A stretch of DNA of 64,000 nucleotides from a phage: the NCBI GenBank assembly GCA_017003895.1, contig GCA_017003895.1_4520.1. One strand, 5' to 3'. The first letter of the stretch is position 1, and every line of letters begins with the position of its first letter. The translations under genes and the position numbers were made by a program. The notes below the pieces were generated by a model. The model saw only the letters and a program-made list of their open reading frames with translations, did no database searches and was not told the origin of the DNA. Shown here one piece after another: positions 25,567-25,914 of the stretch.

Positions 25567-25914
25567 TTAATATGGCTTTGCATCAAATTTTCTTTCAATT
25601 TCAGGCGTGAAATATAGTTCTTTACCACGCTTAGAAAAACGGCCAATAATATGATAATTATTTTCGTCGAACGTGATATTACCGAGGTCCATAGCTTTTA
25701 ACCAATCATCAATACTTCTATGCAGTTTTATATCAAAATTCCAGTATTGAGAACTATTACCACGGATACTACAAGCAGATTCAGTAAAACAACTACTATA
25801 AATCTTGTCTTTAGGAACTACTAATTGATAGACACCTTTAATAAACTGAGGACCTTGCCACTTTGGCTGTTTCGCATCTTCTTCTAATAGAATAGGGTAA
25901 TAATTAAAATTCAT
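25567..25914 (-). CDS. Hypothetical protein inserted between frd and td
   Basis: 115-aa ORF; start overlaps the frd 3' end by 11 nt, stop lies 13 nt before the td start; no recognisable motif. Confidence 0.5.

Follow-up and report, generated by a model that had tools for sequence, protein, structure and literature searches.

Gene X between frd and td

The window analysed here is a 64,000-nucleotide (nt) stretch of phage DNA (NCBI GenBank assembly GCA_017003895.1, contig GCA_017003895.1_4520.1). Our subject is a 115-amino acid (aa) open reading frame (ORF), here called gene X, that lies in it between frd (dihydrofolate reductase) and td (thymidylate synthase). Gene X occupies positions 25567..25914 on the minus strand, starts with ATG, is a member of the protein family PHROG 1928 and is an orthologue of RB32ORF229c. 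It follows frd (25904..26521, minus strand; 205 aa; Pfam DHFR_1, E 2.4e-18), which it overlaps by 11 nt (25904..25914). A gap of 13 nt (25554..25566) separates its stop codon from the ATG of td (24693..25553, minus strand; 286 aa), which is free of introns. The interval shows 99.6% identity to that of the Mosigvirus phages PTK, AlbertHofmann (Bas47) and KMB38. In phage T4 (NC_000866), frd encodes 193 aa and shares a 4-nt overlap (ATGA) with td, and there is no gene in between. An original prediction, made from the letters of the window, had described frd and td as contiguous in T4 and had placed an extra 115-aa ORF at the junction with the overlap and spacing given above; the T4 record and the ORF coordinates bear out both statements. 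No paralogue of gene X was found elsewhere in the window, and no RNA element was found in the frd-td interval.

Up to residue K194 the Frd protein of the window has 86% identity with T4 Frd, and beyond this point it is extended. All 12 of its additional residues had been assigned to a C-terminal extension; 11 of them are indeed C-terminal and arise by read-through (final 11 codons at 25907..25939, minus strand, overlapping the gene X start), while one is due to an internal insertion or deletion. The read-through can be traced to a run of A's at the former frd stop (25935..25945), where two additional A's remove the stop and thereby lengthen Frd by 11 residues. In the junction alignment, the run and the former stop read TATAAATGA in T4 and T2, and TATAAAAATGA in the window and RB14. 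The frd gene of T2 therefore ends as in T4, and those of the window and RB14, deprived of this stop, run on into gene X. The td gene of T4 carries a 1-kb group I intron encoding I-TevI, which appears as a 1017-column gap in the alignment with the window; among the sampled T-even phages, presence of this intron is independent of the presence of gene X.

Conservation of gene X places it far beyond a chance reading frame. Relative to the T2 and RB14 copies it has 33-34 synonymous and 9 non-synonymous differences, which corresponds to a ratio of non-synonymous to synonymous substitution rates (dN/dS) of about 0.035, and homologues with 26-45% identity hold the same position in other genera. Searching with tblastn yielded a homologue in 582 phage records, of which 14 matched at 99% identity or above, 349 at 90-95% (including T2, RB14, RB3, AR1 and PP01) and 219 below 60% (phages of Klebsiella, Enterobacter, Salmonella, Serratia, Kosakonia and others). 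The protein itself is identical to the PTK and KMB38 copies and 94% identical to those of T2 and RB14. It matches PHROG 1928, annotated as "unknown function", over its full length (E 9.2e-36; residues 4-111 against profile positions 2-125 of 126). A profile search of 1.84 billion representative proteins returned 24 clusters; all source names in them are "hypothetical protein" from T4-like phages, 22 of the clusters consist of proteins of 95-130 aa from T4-like phages, and the other two are longer repeat proteins that appear to be spurious. No domain fusion and no cellular homologue of gene X came up in this search. At the level of sequence, these results show that gene X is a genuine protein-coding gene, belonging to an uncharacterised family, PHROG 1928, that is confined to T4-like phages.

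Gene X is already known as a catalogued hypothetical gene of an uncharacterised family. The RB14 record lists RB14ORF231 (YP_002854567), which is the same gene, under the name "RB32ORF229c hypothetical protein; flanked by 9 bp repeat"; its position behind frd and the repeat on either side of it agree with the window. In other records it is mostly labelled as a hypothetical protein, and in the BASEL phages and ValerieMcCarty04 as a "putative homing endonuclease" (MZ501047, MZ501113, MZ501065 and OR271596). A literature search for RB32ORF229c, PHROG 1928 or a gene located at the frd-td junction found nothing. The homing endonucleases described for KP15/KP27 and the activators of bNACHT11 are different genes.

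A variable slot in T4-like phages

The position of the family was compared in twelve contexts. Three are from Mosigvirus (the window, AlbertHofmann and NHEP29), two from Tequatrovirus (T2 and RB14), and one each from Kanagawavirus (Q7622), Jiaodavirus (ValerieMcCarty04), Gelderlandvirus (STML-198) and Muldoonvirus (WSPA); the other three are metagenomic T4-like contigs (L012, L014 and L015) that contain the most divergent family members. A PHROG 1928 gene is located between frd and td in all twelve. The state of the junction was then scored in a spread sample of Tequatrovirus with about 50 informative records. About 35 of these have gene X only, and three are empty (two T4 records and FL12). 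In roughly a quarter of the sampled phages, gene X is replaced by a 68-aa gene, here called gene Z, which belongs to PHROG 9550 (likewise of unknown function). The original prediction had described the ORF as an insertion relative to T4 and had proposed alignment with T4, T2 and other T-even phages; in these alignments gene X is present in T2 and RB14 and missing from T4. The junction is thus empty in T4 and occupied by an equivalent ORF in most T4-like relatives. It is also empty in RB69, the type Mosigvirus, and in about 145 similar records.

More than one gene can occupy the interval. Gene Y, which stands beside gene X in several contexts, is a distant paralogue of it and also matches PHROG 1928. 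The order X-Y is found in Kanagawavirus and Gelderlandvirus, X-Y-Z in contig L012, and three paralogues in contig L014; the tandem copies, two or three in number, are strongly diverged (L014 3245..4288; L015 4001..4685). Since these diverged paralogues lie side by side between frd and td, the family evidently duplicates and diversifies in place. Gene Z was located in Shigella phage Sf21 (L010 501..707), in a Serratia phage (L006 1806..2018) and in the metagenomic contig L012 (4670..4879). It is unrelated to gene X, both its ends overlap the adjacent stop and start codons, and as a gene of 68-70 aa it immediately precedes td in WSPA and L012. In the latter, the complete array frd-X-Y-Z-td is linked by overlapping stop and start codons. 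Comparison of these gene orders shows the frd-td interval to be the home of PHROG 1928, with zero to three tandem paralogues and sometimes a PHROG 9550 gene, packed so closely that their stop and start codons overlap or nearly do so. In other words, it is a small variable slot with room for between zero and four small genes, of which PHROG 1928 supplies at most three, and for this reason it is a tractable place in which to seek host-specific phage functions.

The ends of the segment record some of its history. In T2, the extra segment is flanked by the 9-mer TAAATGAAA, and removal of one copy together with the intervening DNA gives the exact T4 junction. In the window, the repeat AAATGAAA occurs on the minus strand at the left junction (25933..25940), where it is what is left of the motif that forms the frd stop and the td start in T4-type junctions, and at the right junction (25548..25555), where it includes the td start codon. 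We rejected this flanking repeat as evidence of transposition, because 8-nt repeats are not rare in such AT-rich DNA (six other repeats of 8-12 nt were counted in 600 nt); only its position is informative. T2 and RB14 have 32 nt more between gene X and td than the window. The extra bases (T2, L008 about 3870..3917; RB14, L007 1849..1893) contain TAGCTTCA followed by TATAAT, which resembles the layout of a T4 middle promoter (MotA box plus -10) and may represent one.

Most of the sampled T-even records, and other genera as well, carry gene X at this place, and T4 therefore looks like the deletion state. The comparisons are read most simply as an old slot for several genes, with losses that differ between lineages; on this reading T4, FL12 and the RB69-type phages have lost gene X. 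In the Tequatrovirus lineage, gene X may instead have inserted into a T4-like junction with duplication of 9 bp; the deep synteny speaks against insertion as the origin of the family. Homing of the td intron (I-TevI), with removal of gene X by co-conversion, was also considered as a route to the empty junction, and was rejected since most of the sampled intron-bearing phages retain X or Z.

Identity in 60-nt bins against RB69, T2 and T4 was used to map the origin of the DNA around gene X. Above about position 26990, on the gene 32 side, identity of the window to RB69 is 97-100%. Between about 26990 and about 25555 the window becomes 82-98% T2-like in most bins, with identity to RB69 falling to about 60% across frd, and on the td/nrdA side, within td, it is again 86-95% RB69-like. 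This shift delimits, in a Mosigvirus (RB69-like) backbone, a Tequatrovirus-like patch of about 1.4 kb (25555..26990) that includes most of frd.1, a 93-aa ORF, frd and gene X, and it indicates that gene X arrived together with frd on the patch by recombination between phages. A different junction was found in phage NHEP29 (L013 890..1270). Here, unlike in the window, an ATGA overlap connects gene X with an RB69-type frd, and the crossover lies within the sequence ATGAA that is common to the starts of gene X and td. Judged from these alignments, NHEP29 is a case of cassette transfer that used microhomology at one end and td homology at the other. Taken together, the patch in the window and the NHEP29 junction suggest that gene X is exchanged as a cassette through the phages' own recombination. 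No mobility activity of its own was detected, as Pfam-type searches revealed no nuclease or transposase motif. The comparisons thus identify gene X as an old resident of the frd-td interval and neither a recent insertion nor a mobile element. Of the suggestion that the ORF was an insertion of the often mobile kind, the optional character and the exchange by recombination stand; recent insertion and self-mobility do not. Anti-defence cargo, the other kind that the prediction named, is a possible role. Nor is the ORF a new arrival, given its homologues in 582 records and at the same place in other genera.

Predicted fold and possible function

An AlphaFold model of the gene X protein, built from an alignment of 25 family sequences, is of high confidence (predicted local distance difference test, pLDDT, 93; predicted template modelling score, pTM, 0.85). 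It contains strands at residues 6-12, 27-34 and 62-64, a helix at 68-77, and further strands at 80-82, 86-96 and 99-104. This predicted order is compatible with an oligonucleotide/oligosaccharide-binding (OB) fold, that is, a five-stranded barrel with a helix between strands 3 and 4, and the known structures closest to the model are OB-fold domains (HIN, Teb1, RPA, S1 and the N-terminal domain of RecO). Conserved positions in the family are Q16, W19, G27, Y29, N79, G91, F93, K95, G97 and F102, all of which except N79 are invariant or nearly so; the consensus motifs are LLExDxxQKKW, HGxYxLxF and IGRFxKxG. No invariant His, Asp, Glu or Cys occurs in the family alignment. The "several cysteines" of the original prediction amount to two (C42 and C48), neither of which is kept in the family.

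The anatomy and evolutionary history of gene X we regard as close to certain. On the model, the protein is most likely a binder rather than an enzyme, given its small size, the lack of a catalytic signature and the compact barrel that is predicted for it. Our best guess, which we offer tentatively and at well below even confidence, is that gene X encodes a host-specific accessory factor, which would act in counter-defence or in the takeover of the host by binding one of the host's proteins or its nucleic acid. This guess is based on three observations: gene X is dispensable, as T4 and RB69 do without it; it is exchanged between genera; and it has expanded into diverged paralogues. It also takes into account that the gene is probably dispensable in laboratory hosts and that it is gained and lost among close relatives. 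Synthesis of the protein would take place early in infection, from the message that covers frd and td, and would probably be coupled to the translation of frd. Its fold would be one small beta-barrel that includes a single helix and has its strands in an OB-like order, and three conserved elements (the QKKW loop, the G-x-Y strand and the IGRFxKxG hairpin) are predicted to form the binding face.

The internal-protein (ip) loci, for which an anti-restriction role is documented (PMC12373910), offer an analogy. They too are fixed slots that hold varying numbers of small, diverged and dispensable genes differing between T2, T4 and T6. In contrast to ip genes, gene X has no capsid-targeting leader, and it is far more conserved within Tequatrovirus.

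Several observations weigh against a host-directed accessory factor. Within Tequatrovirus the gene is under strong purifying selection, and genes engaged in an arms race do not usually show this. The unbroken linkage to frd and td could signal a role in thymidylate or folate metabolism. Resemblance of the model to known OB domains stays below the usual level of significance; no significant superposition on them was reached. Further, no match to a known family that would bear on function was obtained, and searches of Pfam, NCBIfam, PADLOC (defence proteins) and PDB with the single sequence and two family profiles gave no match.

The linkage just mentioned leads to the strongest of the alternatives, in which gene X is an accessory part of the phage's deoxynucleotide-synthesis machinery. 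Produced in step with Frd and Td, the protein would serve as a small adaptor or as a subunit that binds a ligand, and would either tune the thymidylate-folate cycle or connect this cycle with the replication apparatus. We think this unlikely, yet several features speak for it. The frd-td position is kept in all twelve contexts, even by members that are 25-35% identical; at its start and stop codons the gene overlaps frd, td or sister genes; selection is strongly purifying; and the predicted OB-like barrel carries conserved aromatic and basic residues as in proteins that bind nucleotides or nucleic acids. Nevertheless, T4 and about 145 RB69-type phages manage without gene X, and a copy number of zero to three would be unusual for a stoichiometric subunit. 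The deoxynucleoside triphosphate (dNTP) synthetase complex of T4 is well studied and is not known to need a subunit of this kind. Position alone is also weak evidence, because gene order in T4-like genomes is generally conserved.

Much less probable, and in our view very improbable, is a free-standing homing endonuclease, or a remnant of one, that spreads by cutting the empty frd-td junction. Gene X shares with the free-standing seg and mob homing endonuclease genes of T-even phages the character of a small optional gene between conserved nucleotide-metabolism genes, it is present in some close relatives and absent from others, at a gene junction where a short direct repeat flanks it, and the records of the BASEL phages and ValerieMcCarty04 use this label. 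According to the BASEL paper, putative homing endonucleases were recognised partly via comparative alignment, in addition to blastp, InterPro and Phyre2, and its methods give no specific evidence for the label on gene X. None of the 25 family members matched a nuclease family in Pfam at E values up to 1, and no nuclease fold was found in the model. Gene X therefore differs from seg and mob genes in lacking a nuclease motif or fold, and also in being half their usual size, orthologous at one locus across genera and under strong purifying selection. Its variable presence within Tequatrovirus and Mosigvirus fits a pattern of ancestral presence, loss and recombinational exchange. As for a non-coding spacer with a chance ORF, the missing known domain and an upstream Shine-Dalgarno match that is only moderate (GGCGGAAAAT ATG) would be expected of it. 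The dN/dS of 0.035, the conservation of the protein across genera and the highly confident structure prediction are not, and we consider its probability negligible, the conservation pattern having already refuted it. The remaining probability falls to something else that is as yet unconceived.

Returning to the host-specific accessory factor, a bolder form of this reading extends it to the whole family. PHROG 1928 would then be an unrecognised class of binders for host manipulation or counter-defence, with a fold that has no solved relative, which was overlooked because the reference phage T4 deleted its copy. We consider this possible, although doubtful. If true, the presence of gene X in T2, T6 and most wild T-even phages could explain some of the differences in host range and defence sensitivity between these phages and T4. 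Whatever the function of gene X, T4 is an incomplete reference for its own group: because of the apparent deletion at this junction, a family present in most T-even phages has escaped genetic study. The confident predicted fold without a solved relative and the absence from the reference phage are what give gene X its modest interest.

Neighbouring features

A second ORF without a T4 counterpart, the 93-aa ORF of the recombination patch, lies directly upstream of frd (26525..26806, minus strand) and starts with TTG. Homologous DNA is present, unannotated, in T2 and as RB14ncORF233c (80 aa) in RB14; it is absent from T4 and RB69. Directly downstream of gene 32 is a strong GC-rich hairpin (27563..27580; GGGAGACC GAAG GGTCTCCC) that has a terminator-like score on both strands.
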